From IMG/VR virus record IMGVR_UViG_3300012933_000371, positions 25,989 through 89,988 of that record: a stretch of 64,000 nt of DNA; one strand, written 5' to 3'. The position numbers and the translations under genes are program-made. The notes under the pieces were generated by a model that saw only the letters and a list, made by a program, of their open reading frames with translations, had not been told where the DNA came from and ran no database searches. Below, piece by piece: positions 4,489 to 63,388 of the stretch (position 1 is its first letter; every line of letters begins with the position of its first letter). This DNA comes from a virus (Duplodnaviria; Caudoviricetes).

Positions 4489-7400
4489 TTACTTTGTTTG
4501 TACTGGTGATGTTGGTGGAGTAAACGCTGCGTTATATCGTGCAACACCTTTAGTGATTCTTAGATCCTGAAGGTATCCGTTGAAATCTTGACTACCTGTA
4601 TTTGGATTAGAGCCGATATATGTACTTGTTACTGCATTAAAGTTATATGTACTTGTTGCAGTTGCCACACTAACTCCATTGATATATGCAGTCATATTGC
4701 CGGCACCTGTTCCATTTCTTACTATTGCAAAATGTTGCCATTGACCAAGTTTAAATGAACCTGACGGGAATGACAATCTAGCAGTAGTTGCTTCACAGAA
4801 ATCAGCAGAACCTGCAGCATAAATGATGAGTAAGTGTTCGCCTGTAGTAGGTGTTCCTTGTGATAACACACGAGCATTACTAGGTAAAGAGCTGTGATAG
4901 ATCCAGCCTTCGATAGTAAAATCACCTGATCCCAGTGAATTTGACGGTCCTGGCTTAGTTAATACCACATCACCGGCGCCGTCAAAATACATACTCATTC
5001 CAGAATTTTTCTGAAATGGGTTGAATGATTTAACTGCTACTGTGTTATATGCTGTCAATGTAGCCGCATTAGTACTATTGTCTTTAAATCTATTAGATTG
5101 ACATGTTAGCAACTGTGTACCAGATACCGCAGTTAGTGGGCTTGTACTTGGCGTAAATGTCGTTGTATACAAACAAGTATTAGCAACTCTATGATTACTA
5201 ATATAACCGTGTGTAGCATTGACATTACCAGGACTAAATATTGCCCATGCACCTTGTGTATAAGTAGTTGCTGTTGTAGTAGATCCAACAGAAACTCCGT
5301 TAACCCACATTGTCATAAGATTACTACTATCTCTAGTAATTGCTATATGATACCACTGCCCTAATACAATAGATGATACCAAGAATGTTGAGTTAAATAT
5401 ATTACTTGAGCCATATAAGTTAGGTGATATTCTAGTACCGTCGTTATATAAAGCGAATCCACCATTAGATTGTACACCCATCAATGAACCTGCTTGCGGT
5501 GTAACCGCCCAATTTGCCCAGAATTCAACAGTAAAGGTTCCTGACAATGTAGTCCACGATGCCGAAGGCACAGTTAGATAATCGCCGTTACCATCTGAAA
5601 AATTACTATAATAATTACCAGCATAAGGATCTTGAGGCCATAACTTAGTATCGCCAACGGTTTCTAAGTCAATAGTTCCGTGTGCATCAATAATACCTCC
5701 ACTAGTACCTGTTAAGTACAAACTAGATGGATATGTAGTTGTATTTACAGTAGCTATTGCTGTTACTGGTGCTGCAGGCGGAGCAAAGTTAGAAGTATAT
5801 AACGTAGCCCCCTTGGTAATGCGAACATCACTCAAGTACCCGTTTGTAAATTCTGCAGGTCCTGAGGTATAGTACCCTCCTACCCATTGAATAGCCGTAG
5901 TCAAGTTATATGTAGTTGATGTGCCAGCATTAACCCCGTTAATGTATAGTACTTGAGTAGATCCAGATGTTCCTACCCATGCAATATGATTCCACGCATT
6001 TAGCACCGGCAGTGTGTTAGAACTAACCCAATTACCTCCAGCATCTCCAGCTAATAAACTTCCATTATTGAATCTAATACAGAATGTTCCTGCCGAGAAA
6101 CCTCCTGTTGTTGCTGTTACGATACGCTGATATCCACTGACACTTGTAGGATAAATCCAGAATTCTACTGTTGCTGAATTTTGTCCTATAATTAACTCCG
6201 AACTACTTGGCATACTTAAGTAATCACCATTACCATCAAAGTACATTGATCCGCCGGTAATTTCTGGCGAACATACTACGTTTTCGGTTATGGTTACTCC
6301 AGAACTACCAAACGGGTTAGTTGTTCTAGGGTATACGTTGCCAGTAGTTACTTGGTTAATTCTATTAACACTAATATCCTTAGCATCAGCAGACTGGAAT
6401 CCAAGATACGAAGTATTGTAGCCAAATGGGCTCCATGATTTTGCTATAGTTGCTGAACCACTTTTTGTGATTTGATAACCATTTGTACTATTATCTTTAA
6501 GATCTGCAGATTGACAAGTTAATAGAACAGTATTCGCTACCGCTGTTAGCGGAGCAGTACTTGGCGTAAAGTTTGTAGTATATAAGCCGGTTCCTTTGAT
6601 AATTCTGAAGTTACTTATATACATATTTGTATATGTAGGGTCGTCAGTTATACCAATTTTTGCAGTAGGATTTGAACAATTTTGTGTAAATGAATTGTTG
6701 GTATAATCCAATACACCATTTAAGTACCACTTAAGTACACCAGAAACTCTAACAACAGCTAAATGATTCCATTGATTACTTACAACAGTTGCTGTGCCGC
6801 CACCGTATGATGTGTTGGTATTCCAATATATTTGATTTGTTGATGAAACTTTTATACCAAAACCGCCAGCAGCGTCAGGCGATCTGCCGGCAGTATAAAT
6901 ACCATCATCACGGCCAGTTTGTATTCTATAGAACCAACATTCTATTGTGAAATCACCTGTACCTAGTGCAAGGTTTGAACCTGTTGCAGTTAAATAGTCT
7001 GAAGTTGAGTTGTTAAAGTAAACACTATTACCGTTAGTTGGGATTGTACCAACTGCAGCAATGTTAGTTCCTGAGCTTTGTGATACTTGTAGTGGCGAAG
7101 CAGGTACTGTGAAAGCGCCTGTATAAACACCAACACCTCTAACTACACGTAAGTTACTGATTGAACCAAGTAGTTCTGTAGAAGAATATCCTGGACTATC
7201 ACCTACAGTGCCAACTGTTAAGGTACTTGTTGAGCCAAAATCTTCAGAGCCTGTGTATGTGCCGCGAGCAACGCCGTCAACATATAATGTAGTGACTCCA
7301 GCTATTCTAACTACCGCTAAATGATACCAAGTATATTGGGCAAGACTTATAGTATATAAAATCTTAGTAGTACTGCCTATATTAAATGTTACTTGGTTAT

Positions 7401-10400
7401 ATGTTCCGTTGTAAAGCAAATTAGGTACTGCAGGGTTTGTTCCGCTTGGTCTAAAGTCCCAGATACCTACGTTTGAGTCATTGTCTAGTCTTAACCAAGT
7501 TTCAACAGTATAATCTGACTTTCCTAAACCAAATACAGGCGAAACGTTTGCGCTTCCTGCAGCAGGAGAAATAACATAGCCATTACCATCCATATAAGCA
7601 CTATATGCTGTAGGTGTTACAGTTTTTCCACCAAAAGGTGAGTATGCTTGAACTGACGGAGTTCCAGATACAGTCGCTGCAAAAGTATTAGGGCTATTGT
7701 CAATTAAACGATTACTTTGACACGTTAGTAATTGAGTGTTAGTAATTGCGGTTAATGGTACTGTGCTTGGCGTAAATACTTGAGTTCCTACAGTAGTACT
7801 TGCAGTTGTGTATAGTGCAGTACCTTTTAAGATTCTAAAGTTAGAAATATTACCTGTTATATAGTCGTTGCCACCACCACTACCAACTGATACTGTTGCA
7901 GAAGTACCGTAGTTACCAGTATCTGTACTAACATAGGCCAATGTACCGTTAACGTACATTTTAAATCCGTTTGCTGAAGTGTTTTCTCGCACTACTGCAA
8001 AATGAGTCCAGGTATCAGTTGCAATTAAGTATGATGCTCCAGTTACGTGAGTAGTAGATGCAGGGCCAGAATAGTAACGCAAACAACCTACAGTTGATCC
8101 ACTATAACCACCTGTACCTAATAAAAATTGACTGCCTTGAACAGTAATTTGTTTATTATTAGTTCCCTTAGGTAACTTTACCCACCCTTCAAATGTAAAG
8201 GCACCAGTACCAAACGCATATTGAGTGCTAGATGGGAAAGTTAATTGAGACCCACCGTCAAAGTATGTACTCCAGCCGTTTTGGCTAAATGGACTAAACG
8301 TACCTTGTGTGGGATTACCTGATCTAGTTACAATATTGTTAGCGCTGCTTTGGTCAACAAAGTTATTATTTGTTGAGTTACCATTATACTGTAGGGTTAG
8401 TAATTTTGTATTTGTTACAGCAGTTAGGGGTGTTTGCGGAGGCAAGAAGTTTGAGGTATATACTGCTGAGCCTATAACAAGCCTAAAATCAGATATATAT
8501 GCATTAAATGAACCTGCAGATCCGTATCCTGCACGTGCCGCTATTGATGGCTGTTTAATATAATCGCCATAATAGTCAATTGCTTGAGTACCAATATTAT
8601 AAGTAGTAGCATCTGCGATACCATTAACATATAAGGTAAAAGTACCATTGTTACGAACCAGTGCCACATGGTTCCACATATTTAATTTAACTTGTTGTGA
8701 AGTACCTGTAAACGATACACCACCATTACCATTTTGATCCCAAGTATAGTTTAAGTATCCACTAGACTGTAATGTAAAAATACTTTGTCCACCAATGCCA
8801 TACCATTGGTTAAACAAAGCACCTTCATTACCACCAGGGTAGTTTATGGGATATATCCAACATTCGTATGTGAAGTTTTTGTCAGTTAATGCAAATAGGG
8901 CTGAAGTACTACGAGTTTCATCAGCAATCTTTAAAAAGTCGCCAGAGCCATCAAAATAAGCGGAACCAATACTAGTTAGTGTATTTGTACTGGTAGTCTG
9001 TGTGAAGGGGCTAAATGCAGTTGGTTGTGCATCACCATAACTTGTGACAACAAACGCATTAGTTGAGTTATCTTTTAGGGTTGAGTTTTGGCAAGTTAAT
9101 AAGCTTGTACCTGACACTGCGGTTAATGGAGCTGTACTAGGTGTAAAAGTTGTTGTATATAGTGCCGTACCTGTAACTACTCTAAAATTACTAATATAAC
9201 CTCGATAATAAATTGCAGAGGAGCCATTTCTACCAAGATACAGTGTGCTACCAGTATAATTAGTTGTGTCACTTGTAAAGGTACTACCTGCTTGAGTACC
9301 GTTTAAGAATAATTTAGTATTCCCGCCCTGTCTTGTTATTGCAATATGCGTCCATTTATTGCCGTAATTAGCAGATGTAAACCCGGATACGGTTATTTTA
9401 TTTGTTCCGCTTGCGTCAGTATAAAAAGATAAATTGTTATCTGAATAACGATATAGCAAAAATCCAGAAATATTAGCAAACAAATCATAGCGTGTGCCAT
9501 CTACGCCGGTAAAATAGAACCAACCTTCAACAGTAAAATCACCTGTACCAATTGTTATACCAGTAGAGGGAACTGTTAAGTAATCACCAGTACCATCAAA
9601 GTACGTACTATACTGCGTGTTATAAGCAATAGATGTTGGTCTTGCAAAAGGAACAGACGACGTTACTGGTACTGACGATACTGGCGTTATTTTGCAATTA
9701 TATGGGCTAGTATCTATTAAACGACTAGAGTTTGCGCATAGTAATGTAGTGCCGGCGATAGCTGTTAAAGCCTGCGTAGAAGGGGTAAAATTAGCCGTGT
9801 ATACTGCAGTACCCTTAACGATTCTAAAATTACTTAAAGAGAATTTATTTTTATATCCTGTTGAGTAATACCCACCTAATGCAAGATATGTTGCAGTATA
9901 GTTTGTTGTGTCAGCACCAGTTTGGCAAGCTACTCCATCAATATATAAAGTGAATACGCTATTATTTTTAACTAATGCAAAATGTGTCCAAGCAAACATC
10001 TTTGGCACAGGTGTATTTGGTTGTGCAAAGTTTGAACCACCACTATATGTATGCCATAAGCTATTATAAGTTGCAAACGCAACTCCTGATCCGTTACTTG
10101 GTAAATATCCATTATCACTTAGATGGAATATACCTCCGTTCCAGTCTATTCCACCTTCTAGTCTTACCCAACCTTCAATAGTCCAATTACCTGCTCCAAG
10201 TGGAGTAACTGGAATAGTTGCATAGCTGCTATTATCAAAATAATTGCTGTAATAACCTTCTTGATACGGATTAAAGCTATTTGGCTTTGTATCACCAATT
10301 ACGGTCACTTGATTATTAACTGAACTAGCATCACTTACAAAGGATGGAGTTGGAGTTGTGCCGTTTAATAGTAAAGTAGTATCTTTCCAGTAAGTATCGC

Positions 10401-34828: not shown

Positions 34829-36273
34829 GCTAATACTGCTCTCATTCTGTTGGCTATTTCTGCCGAGGCTAATTCTCTGATTGACTTAGATATTAGCAGT
34901 TTAGGGTCACGTGATGTTGGCTGACTTTGGCGTCCGCCAGCAGAAAAAGTTGCGTAGGGGTTCTTCATGTACGAATAAAACGCAGTTATCATACCTTCTC
35001 GGCTTTCAGTTAGTCTTTCTACTACCGCAGAATTAGCAAGTCTGCCTGTTCTGTAGTTTAGTACATTACGACTATTGCCGGTACCCATATTTTTCTTTAT
35101 TTGTGCAGCTAAGTTTTGATTAATTAAAACCTGTATAGAAGCTAAGGAAGTAAATCTTCCCGCTAAGTTACGTATAGGCTTTGGCTTGTTAGCTTTTATC
35201 TCTGAACGTATCTTCTTAGCTTGCTGTATAAGTGCTTTATTATTAGACTTTTTAATTGCTACGGGTATCTTTTTGCTAATATTACTGGTTACTTTACCAG
35301 AATAAACTTGCTTAGATTTTTTACCAGTACTAAGCATACTGGCTAAATCTTTAGCTAACATGTCTATAAAAGTAGGAGAACTTTTACTAGTAAGTAACAT
35401 TTTACCTGTACTACTATTGTTGAAAGCTTTCTCAATCTCTGTAGAGTTTGGGGTAAATACTTTTCTAAGTTCTTCGACTACTGCTTTGGAAGCTCTTCCA
35501 GAGGATCTATTAGTTATACTATACTGCATTTCTACTAGATATTTATCTGTAGACTTTGTGTAGTTAACATTGCTGATGTTTTGGTAAACTTCTGTAGGCA
35601 TATTAGCTGAGCGAAGATCGTCTTCCTCTAGCTGTTTAATATATACGTCTAATGCGTGTACTAGGTTTTGTTTTACTTTATCTGATAAAGCGTTTGATCC
35701 CTGTACTTCGTCTTGGAATGCTTTTGTTAGATTAGCAGCAACGGAGATTACGTGCCCTTTATCAAAGAACGTGCCTATTGTAAAGTTAGGCATGGCATCA
35801 ATTTTTTGCCACTCTCTGTTATACTGCGCTTTAGTTAGCGTAGGATCTTGTGCTAATTCTTCTTTTAATCTATCCTTATGTCGCTCTGTTTGCTCGTATA
35901 AGTAGTGATCAATTTCGTCGCTTTTAAAGGCTCTGTTAAGTACTTCTGTAATAGTATCGAAGCCAATACCTTTATAAAGTACCGCATTCTGTCCGTTTAC
36001 TTTTTCAAACGAGCCTTTTATGCCGTCAACTCCAGAATTATCTGCTAGCTTTTGCAGCATTGACATTACGTCAGTTGCGTGTGCGTCTCCTGTAATAGAC
36101 TTAAAAATGTTTGAAACATCTTTAGCAGTAATCAGGAAGTCAGTTTTAGCGGCTCGCTGTTGACTAGATCGTAGTTTATCAACCGTACTACTTACTATAT
36201 TCTTTTCTAGTTTTTGAAACCAGCTTTTGTAAGCTTCTGATTGCAGTGCTTGGCTAAATTCTGCTACACTCAT
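34825..36273 (-). CDS. Tail completion / neck protein
   Basis: C-terminal LNYRTGRLANS...YSYMKNPYATF...RDPKLLISKSIRE motif; T5 p143 position. Confidence 0.65.
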   Translation of the reverse strand: MSVAEFSQALQSEAYKSWFQKLEKNIVSSTVDKLRSSQQRAAKTDFLITAKDVSNIFKSITGDAHATDVMSMLQKLADNSGVDGIKGSFEKVNGQNAVLYKGIGFDTITEVLNRAFKSDEIDHYLYEQTERHKDRLKEELAQDPTLTKAQYNREWQKIDAMPNFTIGTFFDKGHVISVAANLTKAFQDEVQGSNALSDKVKQNLVHALDVYIKQLEEDDLRSANMPTEVYQNISNVNYTKSTDKYLVEMQYSITNRSSGRASKAVVEELRKVFTPNSTEIEKAFNNSSTGKMLLTSKSSPTFIDMLAKDLASMLSTGKKSKQVYSGKVTSNISKKIPVAIKKSNNKALIQQAKKIRSEIKANKPKPIRNLAGRFTSLASIQVLINQNLAAQIKKNMGTGNSRNVLNYRTGRLANSAVVERLTESREGMITAFYSYMKNPYATFSAGGRQSQPTSRDPKLLISKSIRELASAEIANRMRAVLA

Positions 36274-43587: not shown

Positions 43588-43911
43588 ATGACTGCAAAGA
43601 CTGTAAACTATACGGCAGACCAAGCCGCAAAAATGGTAGCTGACTATTTGGCTGGCGTGACTGTTGAAGCTATCGCGGCTGAGATGGGTAAATCTGCTCG
43701 CTCTGTTGTTGCTAAACTTTCACGCGAGAAGGTTTATAAGGCTAAGACTTATCAGACTAAGACAGGTGAAGCCGTGATTAAAAAAGATGCACACGCTGAT
43801 TTTATCGGCGAAGCATTGGGCTTAACTGAGGCTGATACCGATTCGCTGACTAAGGCCAACAAGGTAGCATTGGCAAAGATTGCCGATTTTATCAAGGCTG
43901 AAAAGAGCTAA
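43588..43911 (+). CDS. T5 A2-like DNA-binding protein, paralogue 1
   Basis: MTAKTVNYT...Y..G...IA..MGKSARSVVAKLSRE.VY pattern resembles my recollection of T5 A2; HTH-like. Confidence 0.6.
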   Translation: MTAKTVNYTADQAAKMVADYLAGVTVEAIAAEMGKSARSVVAKLSREKVYKAKTYQTKTGEAVIKKDAHADFIGEALGLTEADTDSLTKANKVALAKIADFIKAEKS

Positions 43912-45859: not shown

Positions 45860-46336
45860 ATGGCTAAAATTAACCGCGTTGCAATTTACGACATGGACGG
45901 CACGATTGTAGATTCAAGCCACCGCTATCGCACAATTACTGATGAAAATGGCGAGCGTATAGATTTGGATTTTTGGCGAGAAAATGAATATCGCGCAATG
46001 GATGACGGATTGTTGCCCATGTTTTCACAATATGAAAAAGATTTGGCTGACGAAAATTGTTATACAATTATTGCAACTGCGCGGGTAATGAACGAACCAG
46101 ATTGGCAATTCGTAAACGAAATTTTAGGCGCTCCAGATTATTTTATTTCTCGCCCTGCGGGTTCTGATATTTCAGGCAAAACGCTAAAAATTAATGGCCT
46201 TGCAAAATTCTTTAATCTGGTAACTTTCAAAGATGCTGATTTTGTTTTTTACGAAGATAATATTAGCTATCTAAAAGCCGTTTGCGATAGGTTTAATATT
46301 CGCGGGGTTTATATCCCAAGCGTTCAAGGCCATTAA
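45860..46336 (+). CDS. HAD-superfamily phosphatase (PNK 3'-phosphatase / nucleotidase-like)
   Basis: YDMDGT, IATAR, K and YEDN: HAD motifs I-IV. Confidence 0.8.
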   Translation: MAKINRVAIYDMDGTIVDSSHRYRTITDENGERIDLDFWRENEYRAMDDGLLPMFSQYEKDLADENCYTIIATARVMNEPDWQFVNEILGAPDYFISRPAGSDISGKTLKINGLAKFFNLVTFKDADFVFYEDNISYLKAVCDRFNIRGVYIPSVQGH

Positions 46337-48651: not shown

Positions 48652-48978
48652 ATGACTGCAAAAACTGTAAACTACACCGCCGAGCAAACTGCTAAGATTG
48701 TGGCCGATTATTTGGCTGGCGTGACTGTCGAAGCCTTGGCCGCTGAATTGGGAAAATCAGCCCGTTCGGTTGTTGCGAAATTGTCACGCGAAGGCGTATA
48801 TAAGGCAAAAGTATACAAAACCAAAACTGGCGCGGCTGTGGTCAAAAAAGATGCTCACGCCGATGCAATCGGCGCTATTTTGCAATTGAGCGAAAATGAA
48901 ATCGAAAGTTTGACAAAAGCAAATAAAACTGCGCTGGAAAAGATTTTTTCAGCACTTGCAAATTCTAAGCCAGTTTAA
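48652..48978 (+). CDS. T5 A2-like protein, paralogue 2
   Basis: Highly similar to 43588-43911; own promoter TTGAAA-17-TATAAT. Confidence 0.6.
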   Translation: MTAKTVNYTAEQTAKIVADYLAGVTVEALAAELGKSARSVVAKLSREGVYKAKVYKTKTGAAVVKKDAHADAIGAILQLSENEIESLTKANKTALEKIFSALANSKPV

Positions 48979-49671: not shown

Positions 49672-49989
49672 ATGATGACTAAAGAAACCAAAACAGTAAA
49701 CTACACTCCAGAACAAACTAAGGCAATTGTGGAGGCATACCAGGCAGGTGCTAGCGTGGAAACTATTGCCAAGGAAATGCAAAAATCCACTCGAAGCATT
49801 GTTGCTAAGCTGGCTCGTGAAGGTGTGTACCAAGCCAAATCTAAAGCCAAGGGCACTCAAGCTCCACGCAAATCCGAGTTGATTACTCAAATTGCTCACA
49901 GCATCGGCACTAACGAAGAGTTGATCGAGTCGCTTGAGAAAGCTACCCGCGAAGCTTTGGAGCTGATTGCAAAGGCTGTTAAACAGTAA
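49672..49989 (+). CDS. T5 A2-like protein, paralogue 3
   Basis: VNYTPEQT...Y.AG..VE.IA...KS.RSIVAKL.REGVY; promoter TTGACG-17-TACAAT (49607-49635). Confidence 0.6.
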   Translation: MMTKETKTVNYTPEQTKAIVEAYQAGASVETIAKEMQKSTRSIVAKLAREGVYQAKSKAKGTQAPRKSELITQIAHSIGTNEELIESLEKATREALELIAKAVKQ

Positions 49990-50014
49990 CAGTTTAGGGT
50001 CAGAAAAAATAAAC

Positions 50015-50043
50015 TTGCTCTGACCCTCTTTTTGCGATATAAT
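50015..50043 (+). promoter_or_regulatory. sigma70 promoter of the long ncRNA
   Basis: TTGCTC-17-TATAAT, -35 embedded in the AGGGTCAGA/TCTGACCCT hairpin. Confidence 0.75.
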
Positions 50044-50270
50044 TATTACTTAGAAAACGAAATAACAACACTGGGACAGCCTGCCACGCTAACTAATTTA
50101 ATCTTGAATACGCAAGCTGTCCCATGTTATAATAATATATCTACTCAGCAAACAGATTACTCAACGAGTCTGTTTGGTAAGTAGTCTGTTTTTGGTGTTA
50201 TGAGCCCAGCCATATATAGCTGGATAACAACTTAATGGTGACCGAAATCTCTAGTCACCGCCTCCCCTAC

Positions 50271-50369
50271 TCCTCTGATGAGCTTATGAAATTTAAGCGA
50301 AACCCAAGCCTTCGTGGCAAGTGTGCGAGCGTCTCCCACCGTTCCACTTGCTACACCTTAGGGTCAGGA
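50271..50369 (+). ncRNA. Type I hammerhead ribozyme
   Basis: CUGAUGA 50275-50281; stem II GCUUA/UAAGC; GAAA 50299-50302; stem III CCC-AAG/CUU-A-GGG extended by GUGGCAAGUG/CACUUGCUAC; GUC ending at 50365; stem I UCCU/AGGA. Confidence 0.8.
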
Positions 50370-50700
50370 CGAAATCCCTAGCGCGTACCACTTGCTGGTG
50401 TTAGGTAAAGAGTAACTCCTAGGTAGCCTACCCTATACCTAAGGCCCCGCTCCGCTATGATCGGGTCACGACTAAACTAGAAATGACCCTAAACTGTGGA
50501 GGGTGCAATAATATATCCAGTCGACTCAGGTTTGCAAAGTCGTTAAGTGTGAGCGCATTCAAGATCCTCCTACTCAGCTAAATCCTTTTATTAACCAAAA
50601 CCAAAGGTAACGCAGTTTAGGATCAGGCAATAAGAGTCCAAGTTGGTTACTTGGCAGTAAGGCTCCTGATTTGGAATAAAAACTTAGTGACGACTAGTTC

Positions 50701-50740
50701 AAAAGCCCCTTCATCCGCAAGATGTTGGGGCTTTTGTTTT
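50701..50740. terminator. Bidirectional intrinsic terminator
   Basis: AAAAGCCCC...CATC-CGCAA-GATG...GGGGCTTTT GTTTT. Confidence 0.8.
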
Positions 50741-50758
50741 GCCTATACGCTCTGCGCC

Positions 50759-50787
50759 ATTTTACCATAGTGCGACAGCAATGTCAA
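50759..50787 (-). promoter_or_regulatory. Leftward sigma70 promoter followed by GGCGC
   Basis: Minus strand TTGACA-17-TAAAAT-GGCGC, firing into the 50701 terminator. Confidence 0.7.
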
Positions 50788-50899
50788 GTGAGTTTTCTAC
50801 GACTTCTGACCCTAAACCGCATAAACTTGGAGAACCTCAAGCACCCACACGCGCTTGACCCTAAACTTGGCCAGTTGACGCCAGAGGCGTCCAATTTGC

Positions 50900-50934
50900 C
50901 CCCACAAAGTACCCACGTAAAAAAGCCCGAATAT
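50900..50934 (-). terminator. Intrinsic terminator
   Basis: AAAAAAGCCCGA...TCGGGCTTTT downstream of A2-like paralogue 4 (coordinates approximate). Confidence 0.55.
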
Positions 50935-50980
50935 CCTGCGATATCGGGCTTTTTGTCGAATTAACTCAAATTATGTCGAA

Positions 50981-51301
50981 TTAATTCAATTTAGGGTCAG
51001 ATTTGGACTCCAAATTCTGTTCGATCATTAACAAGACCTGTTTATTGACCTTTTCTAGGCTTTCGAGTAGCTCTAGGTTGCATTGTAGCAATTCTGCAAT
51101 CCGTTCAATGTGTTCTGACTTTTTTGTTGGCACCTCACCGCGTTTGTTGAGGTACTGCTTTTTTTGGTAGACACCCAGTGAGCTGAGCTTGGCAATAATG
51201 CTGCGTTCTGGCACCTGGAACTGTTGAGCTAGTGCTTGGACGGTCACACCGGCTTGATAGTCTGCGATCAACTGTTTGGTAGATTCATTTGTGTATTTCA
51301 T
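50981..51301 (-). CDS. T5 A2-like protein, paralogue 4
   Basis: MKYTNEST...ADYQAGVTV.ALA.....ERSIIAKLSSLGVY...RGE...KK.EH.E.IA..L......LESLEK. Confidence 0.6.
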   Translation of the reverse strand: MKYTNESTKQLIADYQAGVTVQALAQQFQVPERSIIAKLSSLGVYQKKQYLNKRGEVPTKKSEHIERIAELLQCNLELLESLEKVNKQVLLMIEQNLESKSDPKLN

Positions 51302-51303
51302 GA

Positions 51304-52278
51304 TTAAATCTCCCAAGGTAAGTCTGAACCATCGCTTTTTGATACATACTTATTTTGAGCAGTTTGGGGTCTAAACAAATCTGTAACAATTAGAGGTGCT
51401 GGCATAGAATCCCAACTCTCAGGATCTAAAACCATATACGGAGTACGATTACTTGGGTGTGCACACCAAATTTGGGAATACATTACTTGAGCTAAGTGTG
51501 GTACTGCTTGTAAACATCCGCCTTTTGTAGACCATAATTTAAAACTACTTTGTGGATTACGGCTTTCACCCCTTTTAGGGCCACTTTGATAAATTAACCC
51601 TAATTCACGAGCTTTTAAAATATCTTCTCGTGTATAGTTGCCTTCATGAAGCATTGCTTCACATAAACTATCGTTGACTACCCACTTTAGGGTCTTTCGA
51701 TCCCAACGTGAATATGGAATTTTGTGGTGCAGTTTATAAGCATAAGGAATTAGTGGAACTAAAGCACAAAACTGAGCCCCCTCGCCTTTGTACTGGCTAG
51801 AGAGATATGCACTGCGTGAGTCCAGCATTAAAAACATGTATAGTCCACGTTCCCATTCGCTGTCAAAATCAAAAGCGTGCTTTAAAATCTTGCTGCCATC
51901 AATCTGACCCTCAGCTGTTGAAACTTCCGATAATCGAAATGGTCTATTGGCAATATGTGCCATGATTTGGGGCAGTACTGAAATTAAGAGTGTACTAAGC
52001 TTATATCGTGGAATCCAAATATCTATGGCAGCTTTTTGCCCAGCTTTCTTTCGGACTTCTGCTTTGCTGTACTGTTGAAGCTCTACTTGGTCGCCAAAGC
52101 TGACTTCGCTAGAGGCTTCATGAGTAGCTGCATACCTTTGTTCTAGTGCAGCTACTTCGTTTTCGTATTTGTCTCGTACATGCTGTTCCATACCCTCAAC
52201 TGCAGCGTCTGCAGCGTCTGTATAGATTTCATATAGTTTGTCAAACGGGATTGTTTTAAGTTGTCGGTTAATTATCAT
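51304..52278 (-). CDS. 324-aa protein of unknown function
   Basis: Long ORF, no motif recognised, co-directional with paralogue 4. Confidence 0.8.
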   Translation of the reverse strand: MIINRQLKTIPFDKLYEIYTDAADAAVEGMEQHVRDKYENEVAALEQRYAATHEASSEVSFGDQVELQQYSKAEVRKKAGQKAAIDIWIPRYKLSTLLISVLPQIMAHIANRPFRLSEVSTAEGQIDGSKILKHAFDFDSEWERGLYMFLMLDSRSAYLSSQYKGEGAQFCALVPLIPYAYKLHHKIPYSRWDRKTLKWVVNDSLCEAMLHEGNYTREDILKARELGLIYQSGPKRGESRNPQSSFKLWSTKGGCLQAVPHLAQVMYSQIWCAHPSNRTPYMVLDPESWDSMPAPLIVTDLFRPQTAQNKYVSKSDGSDLPWEI

Positions 52279-63313: not shown

Positions 63314-63388
63314 ACGCTGTTCGTATAATGGATAATACAACTGACTTCTATCCAGTGAATGTGGGTTCGATTCCTGCACGGCGTACCA
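63314..63388 (+). tRNA. trnR: tRNA-Arg (anticodon UCU)
   Basis: Acceptor ACGCTGT/ACGGCGT, D arm GTAT/ATAC, loop CT-TCT-AT, GGTTCGATTCC T arm, encoded CCA. Confidence 0.9.

Follow-up and report, generated by a model that had tools for sequence, protein, structure and literature searches.

A probable type I hammerhead ribozyme of unusual shape inside a non-coding RNA gene of uncultured T5-related phages

A non-coding transcription unit at the end of a gene block

The window, a stretch of 64,000 nucleotides of phage DNA that forms the final part of an 89,988-bp IMG/VR contig, has small + strand genes followed by a gene-free region of about 1 kb and then by minus-strand genes, those nearby including thymidylate synthase and endolysin. 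T5-like phages of Vibrio and Pectobacterium, several of which are classified in Demerecviridae, have large terminases that share 47.5–49.7% identity with the one encoded here. Past the last of the upstream + strand genes, which stops at 49989, comes a terminator-like hairpin of that gene block (49996–50033, + strand; AGGGTCAGA / TCTGACCCT, then a T-run), the 5′ arm of which is a copy of a repeated motif and which is kept, with changed arms, in two relatives (L002 and L003). From there to 50720 (49990–50720) the + strand holds no open reading frame longer than 50 codons.

This gene-free region carries a non-coding unit that extends from promoter to terminator at approximately 50140–50740 on the + strand. 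The best + strand promoter match at the locus, P2 (50104–50133, + strand; TTGAAT-18-TATAAT with TG, 10 of 12 matches), has a predicted start near 50140 and a sequence that is kept in relatives. A possible second promoter, P1, lies further upstream (50015–50043, + strand; TTGCTC-17-TATAAT, −10 box at 50038–50043); it falls below the scan threshold, and its −10 box is conserved in L002 and L003. The unit closes with an intrinsic terminator at 50700–50740 (+ strand), built from 16-nt arms, a 5-nt loop and a T-run. A conserved terminator is found 375–724 nt past the predicted cut described below in 30 of 30 relatives with enough sequence, out of 41 in all. The earlier note on this DNA had placed a hammerhead ribozyme inside a long non-coding transcript, and this promoter-to-terminator unit without a longer open reading frame bears that placement out. 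On the opposite strand, a promoter match at 50759–50787 (minus strand; TTGACA-17-TAAAAT, 11 of 12 matches), conserved in all relatives compared there, fires toward the terminator of the RNA gene, and would yield a short antisense RNA or transcription interference.

In T5, the equivalent place in the gene order is taken by untranslated repeat region 3, or injection stop signal (NC_005859 9140–10936; bioRxiv 10.1101/866236), which sits at the inner end of the left terminal repeat. In T5 as in the window, small + strand genes, about 1–1.7 kb of gene-free DNA and minus-strand genes follow one another, and the gene-free region is rich in direct and inverted repeats. The T5 region has been described as a DNA signal and not as an RNA gene (bioRxiv 10.1101/866236), and no sequence similarity between it and the window was found. 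The name 'pre-early', which the earlier note gave to the RNA, is a positional analogy only, drawn from the T5-like layout.

Anatomy of the hammerhead motif

A complete type I hammerhead motif is present at 50271–50369 on the + strand, with the predicted cut 3′ of C50365. Every element that the earlier note had listed across 50271–50380 lies at the coordinates it gave. Stem I consists of 4 bp, as noted there, formed by UCCU (50271–50274) with AGGA (50366–50369). The catalytic core, C3 to A9, is CUGAUGA at 50275–50281, and is followed by stem II (50282–50298), in which GCUUA (50282–50286) and UAAGC (50294–50298) form 5 bp under a 7-nt loop, the first pair being the G10.1–C11.1 pair (G50282–C50298). 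G12, A13, A14 and A15.1 form the stretch GAAA at 50299–50302. Stem III (50302–50364) is a three-tier hairpin: its closing helix starts with A50302–U50364 and continues with CCC/GGG; a 10-bp helix follows, pairing 50314–50323 with 50345–50354; and an inner hairpin at 50327–50344 ends in a C-rich loop. The 10-bp helix, already proposed as an extension of stem III, is recovered with P > 0.95 in all contexts folded. The scissile bond predicted by the hammerhead rule, a cut 3′ of H17, lies between C17 (50365) and A1.1 (50366).

All of these parts lie on the + strand, in the order stem I 5′ strand, core, stem II hairpin, GAAA, stem III hairpin, C17 and stem I 3′ strand, such that both ends exit through stem I and stems II and III are capped by loops. 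This is type I topology. The A15.1–U16.1 pair is present together with an H17 other than G (A50302–U50364, C50365), and strand order and hammerhead rule together agree with the earlier assignment of a type I fold that would be cut after C50365.

Both strands of the 64-kb window were searched with a descriptor that requires the core, GAAA and at least 4 bp in each of stems I, II and III, the last closing on U-H; its only match is the hammerhead at 50271–50369. The chance expectation is a mean of 0.003 matches per window, from 300 first-order Markov simulations. By itself this rate is too weak for a scan of many windows, and our verdict therefore rests on the comparison with relatives; the conservation and covariation seen in 41 distinct relatives are sufficient.

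A covarying family in related phages

Relatives were gathered in three ways, through the flanking gene, a conserved upstream motif and a pattern of the invariant parts of the ribozyme. A covariance model, R1, was built from 12 of them and searched against IMG/VR phage contigs, giving 42 matches, 41 of them distinct, with scores of 78–134 bits and E-values of 1e-19 to 1e-35. The model also recovers members from outside its training set, among them L013 at 65 bits and the divergent L006 at 27 bits. An exact search of IMG/VR for the stem II sequence of the window gave no match. A pattern scan of 185,579 prokaryote genomes produced 27 matches, of which only two, on tiny MAG contigs, are true members; matches in Pseudomonas and Thermoplasmata are coincidental, lying inside coding sequence and lacking stem II.

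The helices change across the 41 sequences in the way expected of a paired RNA. Paired cells amount to 86%, against 33–39% when the partners are slid by 1–3 columns, both-sided (compensatory) changes occur in 27 of the 33 base pairs, and none of 500 shuffles matches the observed value in any of five measures. RNAalifold, run on a plain MAFFT alignment that was not fitted to structure, returns the same three-way junction. Stems II and III covary strongly, with 4 of the 5 pairs of stem II covarying and 96.6% of its cells paired, whereas stem I is reduced to three constant pairs, one of which switches from U-A to A-U. G-U appositions in the helices outnumber A-C ones by 84 to 39, an excess that fits an RNA read from the + strand.

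The unpaired bases behave in the opposite manner. C3, U4, G5, A6, G8, A9, G12, A13, A14, A15.1 and U16.1 are invariant in 41 of 41 sequences. The sole variable position of the core is N7 (U in 33, C in 8), the one at which hammerheads tolerate any base. H17 is C in 40 sequences, A in one and G in none, and the first pair of stem II, 10.1–11.1, is G-C in 40 of 41. Helices that change around unpaired bases that do not are the signature of selection for catalysis.

Some members stand apart. In the divergent L006 copy (6404–6547; 27 bits), stem II is interrupted by a long insertion bearing a GACCCUAAAC motif, and the 10.1/11.1 pair is irregular; this copy may be a ribozyme in decay. Numerous related contigs terminate at or near the ribozyme locus, and one 100-kb contig, IMGVR_UViG_3300043436_004120, has the locus at both ends (L024 and L040). 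These two copies are near-identical through the hammerhead, with single-base differences, and diverge about 35 nt past the cut; the point of divergence may be the boundary of a terminal repeat, or a place where modules are exchanged frequently.

A minimal stem I and the question of a tertiary contact

Across the family, stem I has three constant pairs (C-G, C-G, and U-A or A-U), in which the CC:GG step is invariant. A fourth pair is present in 17 of 41 sequences, including the window, and a fifth in 10 of 41. Neither a distal stem I helix nor a covarying pseudoknot was found in the family, and fast cleavage at cellular Mg2+ must therefore rely on some tertiary contact between stems I and II. 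Two conserved features could supply it. The loop of stem II follows the consensus U-G-N-A-A-K-U, and a GAAA tail 3′ of stem I is conserved alongside it; loop II, which is GNRA-like, may dock onto either the A-rich tail or the invariant CC:GG step. We also considered whether loop II forms a pseudoknot with an AACUU in the 5′ flank or in the upstream module X (described below), and rejected this because only some members, and not the window, are compatible with it. Stem I and its tertiary contact are the weakest point of the catalytic reading.

Rfam does not cover the family

A covariance search with hammerhead models, which the earlier note had suggested as a check, did not return the motif: none of the Rfam hammerhead models reaches its gathering threshold in the window or in 12 relatives. 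The best, Hammerhead_3, scores 18.9 bits against a threshold of 48.5, with the right core and the wrong closing helix. The miss is likely due to the three-tier stem III of about 60 nt and the very short stem I; the sub-threshold scores reflect these two helices and not a missing core feature.

Other searches return little beyond tRNAs. At gathering thresholds the whole window has a single Rfam match, tRNA-Arg(UCU) at 63314–63388, which is also its only tRNA, and the 12 relatives have tRNAs plus, in L013, a permuted tmRNA. A relaxed search of the locus and seven relatives gives tRNAs and noise only. Models of the HDV family do not match at the locus (E up to 10), and the GOLLD and ROOL models match neither the region in the window (E up to 10) nor seven relatives (E up to 1). 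BLASTN of the locus from the window, or from a relative, against cultured phages finds no match, nor does the ribozyme model against the whole records of T5, My1, vB_ValS_X1 and D254. Our literature search turned up no description of a hammerhead from a T5-like phage.

A variable upstream part and a constant downstream RNA

Directly 5′ of the ribozyme, the window has a module of two hairpins that we call module X (50194–50262, + strand; hairpin 1 at 50206–50223, hairpin 2 at 50237–50259). Compensatory changes occur in 9 of its 18 pairs (RNAalifold, 15 relatives), the linkers are invariant, and no Rfam family matches it. With a regular expression for the ..CTTAAT linker segment as proxy, the module is found upstream of 36 of 41 hammerheads. 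It sits directly 5′ of the ribozyme or, in relatives, of a tRNA-Glu: in 9 of 41 sequences module X and a tRNA-Glu(UUC) both precede the ribozyme, and in 6 of the 9 the CCA end of the tRNA is 5–7 nt from the core, abutting stem I. In L013 (IMGVR_UViG_3300047287_000139, 672–802 and 7630–8007), the ribozyme is preceded only by a promoter, 27 nt away. The same contig has a tRNA array as well as a permuted tmRNA in two pieces, whose betaproteobacterial type hints at the host group.

The RNA downstream of the cut has a recurrent order: AGGA-GAAA, a variable hairpin with covarying arms, a conserved A-rich stretch, hairpins bearing GACCCUAAAC, a conserved 3′ module and, last, the terminator. In the window, the first hairpin is at 50377–50405 (+ strand), with CCUA/UAGG arms (50377–50380/50402–50405) and an inner ACCA/UGGU helix; its probability is 0.8–0.94 when at most 280 nt of context are folded, but drops to 0.09 for the full-length RNA and to 0.0 for the 3′ product alone, and its arms change in step among relatives. 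A hairpin at 50486–50504 (+ strand) bears the repeated motif in the orientation GACCCUAAAC. The 3′ module at 50613–50672 (+ strand) contains a motif copy, a helix pairing 50622–50627 with 50665–50670 and an inner hairpin at 50638–50654; its layout is common to 28 relatives, with changed helices. Since the upstream part varies and the downstream RNA is constant, the downstream RNA is the constant partner of the ribozyme.

Proposed processing of the transcript

On the evidence of the alignments, the motif at 50271–50369 is probably a catalytically competent type I hammerhead, a member of a distinct, uncatalogued subfamily in uncultured T5-related phages, that sets the 5′ end of the downstream RNA. 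The hammerhead most likely cuts a non-coding transcript into two stable RNAs. Transcription would start at a sigma-70-type promoter, near 50140 or, from the weaker one, at approximately 50050, and would run to the terminator at 50700–50740. Stems II and III would fold during synthesis, after which the short stem I would close and the RNA would cut itself between C50365 and A50366.

After a type I cut, the hammerhead stays with the upstream RNA, and the downstream RNA starts at a clean 5′-hydroxyl. As is established for RNA decay, RNase E enters poorly at a 5′-hydroxyl, and 3′ exonucleases are blocked by a 2′,3′-cyclic phosphate that follows a strong hairpin. The 5′ RNA would accordingly contain module X, the ribozyme and, in some relatives, the tRNA-Glu, and would end in a 2′,3′-cyclic phosphate behind the long stem III hairpin. 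The predicted 3′ product, 50366–50740 (+ strand), would be a structured non-coding RNA that, at 375 nt, is shorter than in any other family member, starts with a 5′-hydroxyl and stops at the terminator. As its 5′-hydroxyl is poor for RNase E and the 3′ end of the other piece is blocked, we infer that both products should be stable, the two new ends slowing attack by host exonucleases and RNase E. The main task of the ribozyme would be to give the downstream RNA an exact 5′ end with no need for a host nuclease.

The earlier note had foreseen pieces of about 315 and 375 nt. The length of the 3′ piece agrees with the terminator position, kept in 30 relatives. The 5′ piece is predicted instead to be about 226 nt (+ strand, start near 50140) from P2, the best-conserved promoter, and a length of about 315 nt would need the weaker P1, with a start near 50050.

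A wider proposal can be put forward more tentatively, at somewhat under even chances. T5-related phages may possess an uncatalogued family of modular, highly structured RNAs of large size (0.6–1.4 kb), with the hammerhead as its processing module and, as the functional product, the 3′ RNA with its 5′-hydroxyl.

Competing folds and other readings of the locus

The earlier note had also proposed that cleavage is regulated, with CCCUA elements on both sides (50265–50269 and 50376–50380) pairing with UAGGG (50359–50363) and holding stem III open. The three elements are where it had placed them, and on paper the pairings do compete in the window (P 0.4–0.6): the 5′ alternative, CCCUA 50265–50269 with UAGGG, reaches P 0.43–0.58 in short contexts, and the 3′ alternative, with the downstream CCCUA, approximately 0.4–0.47 in the full-length fold. 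A further element at 50484–50494 could pair with UAGGG/UUAGGGUCA to the same effect, with a perfect 9-nt complement to the cleavage-site strand at 50484–50492, and in most relatives an ACCCU directly 5′ of the core is able to pair with AGGGU. As a family-wide feature, however, the competition does not hold up. Stem III prevails in 36 of 41 relatives (median P 0.89), members differ in which alternative partner scores best, the downstream CCCUA forms one arm of a separate hairpin that covaries, and no ligand-binding or protein-binding element was identified. Because the GGG strand is invariant, covariation cannot support any alternative helix. A regulated ribozyme is unlikely; a conserved switch is without support, and kinetic competition may occur in the phage of the window.

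Less likely again is a ribozyme that processes tRNA, freeing the upstream tRNA-Glu of relatives and left over in the window. Ribozymes adjoining tRNAs are known in phages, namely the theta ribozymes of gut phages, minimal HDV-like ribozymes beside phage tRNAs for which a role at the tRNA trailer has been proposed (PMC10879173). In about a quarter of the relatives of the window, a self-cleaving RNA would likewise directly follow a phage tRNA, the tRNA-Glu(UUC) present in 9 of 41 with its CCA end 5–7 nt from the core in 6. The theta ribozyme, however, has an HDV-like double-pseudoknot fold, abuts the tRNA and is cut at its own 5′ end, right where the tRNA stops, whereas here the fold is a hammerhead, the predicted cut is on the 3′ side of the ribozyme, about 100 nt past the tRNA end (~95–100 nt), so that the trailer would not be trimmed, and there is no tRNA at that place in the window and 31 other members. 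A trailer role of the theta kind therefore does not fit. Furthermore, in L013 the ribozyme directly follows a promoter, and the core is equally constrained in members without the tRNA.

Still more improbable is a hammerhead-shaped three-way junction that serves only as a structural part of the large RNA, with no cleavage in vivo. Such a junction would be in keeping with a stem I of just 3–4 bp, with the failure to identify a tertiary contact and with Rfam scores that are all below threshold, but the unpaired catalytic nucleotides are all invariant in 41 sequences while the helices change freely, and N7 alone varies in the core with H17 never G, a choice of bases that pure structure would not need. 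The last reading, a chance motif or conservation at the level of DNA (a binding-site cluster or origin-like region built on TTTAGGGTCA repeats), can be dismissed as highly improbable: seven motif copies in 49990–50991, one of them overlapping the cleavage site, and a position where T5 has a repeat-rich untranslated region (bioRxiv 10.1101/866236) speak for it, and a role of the motif in DNA could coexist with the RNA, yet it cannot explain the RNA-level signals, which are compensatory changes in 27 of 33 pairs, G-U in excess of A-C and an asymmetric core.

Comparison with known phage RNAs

Hammerheads that process long phage transcripts are established (PMC3088659), and the type I hammerheads of bacteria, prophages and phages (Rfam clan CL00010, RF00163; Perreault et al. 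2011, PMC3088659) are the closest known relatives in form to the catalytic hammerhead proposed here. They have the same core, A15.1–U16.1 pair, NUH cleavage site and G10.1–C11.1 pair, an open stem I with capped stems II and III, and, likewise, a long phage transcript that needs cutting. The family of the window differs in its stem I of 3–4 pairs with an invariant CC:GG step, its three-tier stem III of about 60 nt, a conserved loop II of its own and the failure of all Rfam hammerhead models to detect it. It also differs in location, lying within a non-coding RNA and not between genes.

As a large structured phage non-coding RNA, here of 0.6–1.4 kb, the host transcript resembles GOLLD and ROOL (bioRxiv 10.1101/2024.12.08.627333; PMC5737381). 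Like GOLLD, it has a variable 5′ part, a better-conserved 3′ part and, sometimes, a tRNA in the linker. The sequences and helices of GOLLD and ROOL are different from those seen here and their Rfam models do not match. A built-in hammerhead is unreported in bioRxiv 10.1101/2024.12.08.627333, in which the word is absent, and in PMC5737381.

Hammerheads are common, and one further example is no news by itself; their presence in phage transcripts (PMC3088659) and that of large phage RNAs near tRNAs (bioRxiv 10.1101/2024.12.08.627333) are already known. What is new is a subfamily of unusual shape in an unusual role, the inferred release of a large structured non-coding RNA, one that matches no Rfam family, rather than of an mRNA. 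That a well-supported subfamily is overlooked by every Rfam hammerhead model exposes a detection gap, and its sequences should be useful for improving ribozyme detection. The combination of a 3–4 bp stem I with a 60-nt stem III bears on how small stem I can be in natural hammerheads. The downstream RNA joins GOLLD, ROOL and the stable T4 and T5 RNAs in an expanding group of large phage RNAs with no assigned function. The location is of interest as well: the role of the long untranslated region of T5-like phages is debated, and since the lineage of the window clearly has an RNA gene there, the question can be put to the test.

A repeated motif and the neighbouring genes

An HAD-like phosphatase is encoded at 45860–46336, with a match to a polynucleotide kinase family (phrog_415, E 2.7e-9) and, in Pfam, only a sub-threshold match to HAD-like hydrolases. 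An enzyme acting on RNA ends would bear on the products of the ribozyme, and this match does not establish one.

The repeated motif, 10–14 nt long with core TTTAGGGTCA, has 22 copies in the window against 2.8 expected (for example at 34901, 53012, 53937, 58928 and 62066), and 7 of them are within 49990–50991, around the RNA gene. The strand at the cleavage site of the hammerhead, 50358–50367, is one such copy. The 3′ strand of stem III, UUAGGGUCAG, whose three G's never vary in 41 sequences, is thus also a copy of a motif repeated throughout the genome; to judge from this overlap, part of the conservation of stem III may have another cause, and the motif may explain the invariance of the three G's. 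Cleavage of other motif copies in trans was considered and rejected: the covalent closure of stem III keeps the product strand attached to the enzyme, and pairing of stem I or III with the other copies is poor.

Two copies, at 49994 and 50815, lie 12 and 19 nt upstream of −35 boxes. That the 3′ RNA carries copies of a motif that flanks promoters hints at a link between the RNA and the control of phage transcription. Four small paralogous helix-turn-helix proteins flank the RNA gene (43588–43911, 48652–48978 and 49672–49989 on the + strand, 50981–51316 on the minus strand), with weak matches to GcrA, sigma-70 region 4 and a 'D5-like regulator'. The motif could be an operator for these proteins, an RNA-level element or both, and the four paralogues are candidates to bind it.
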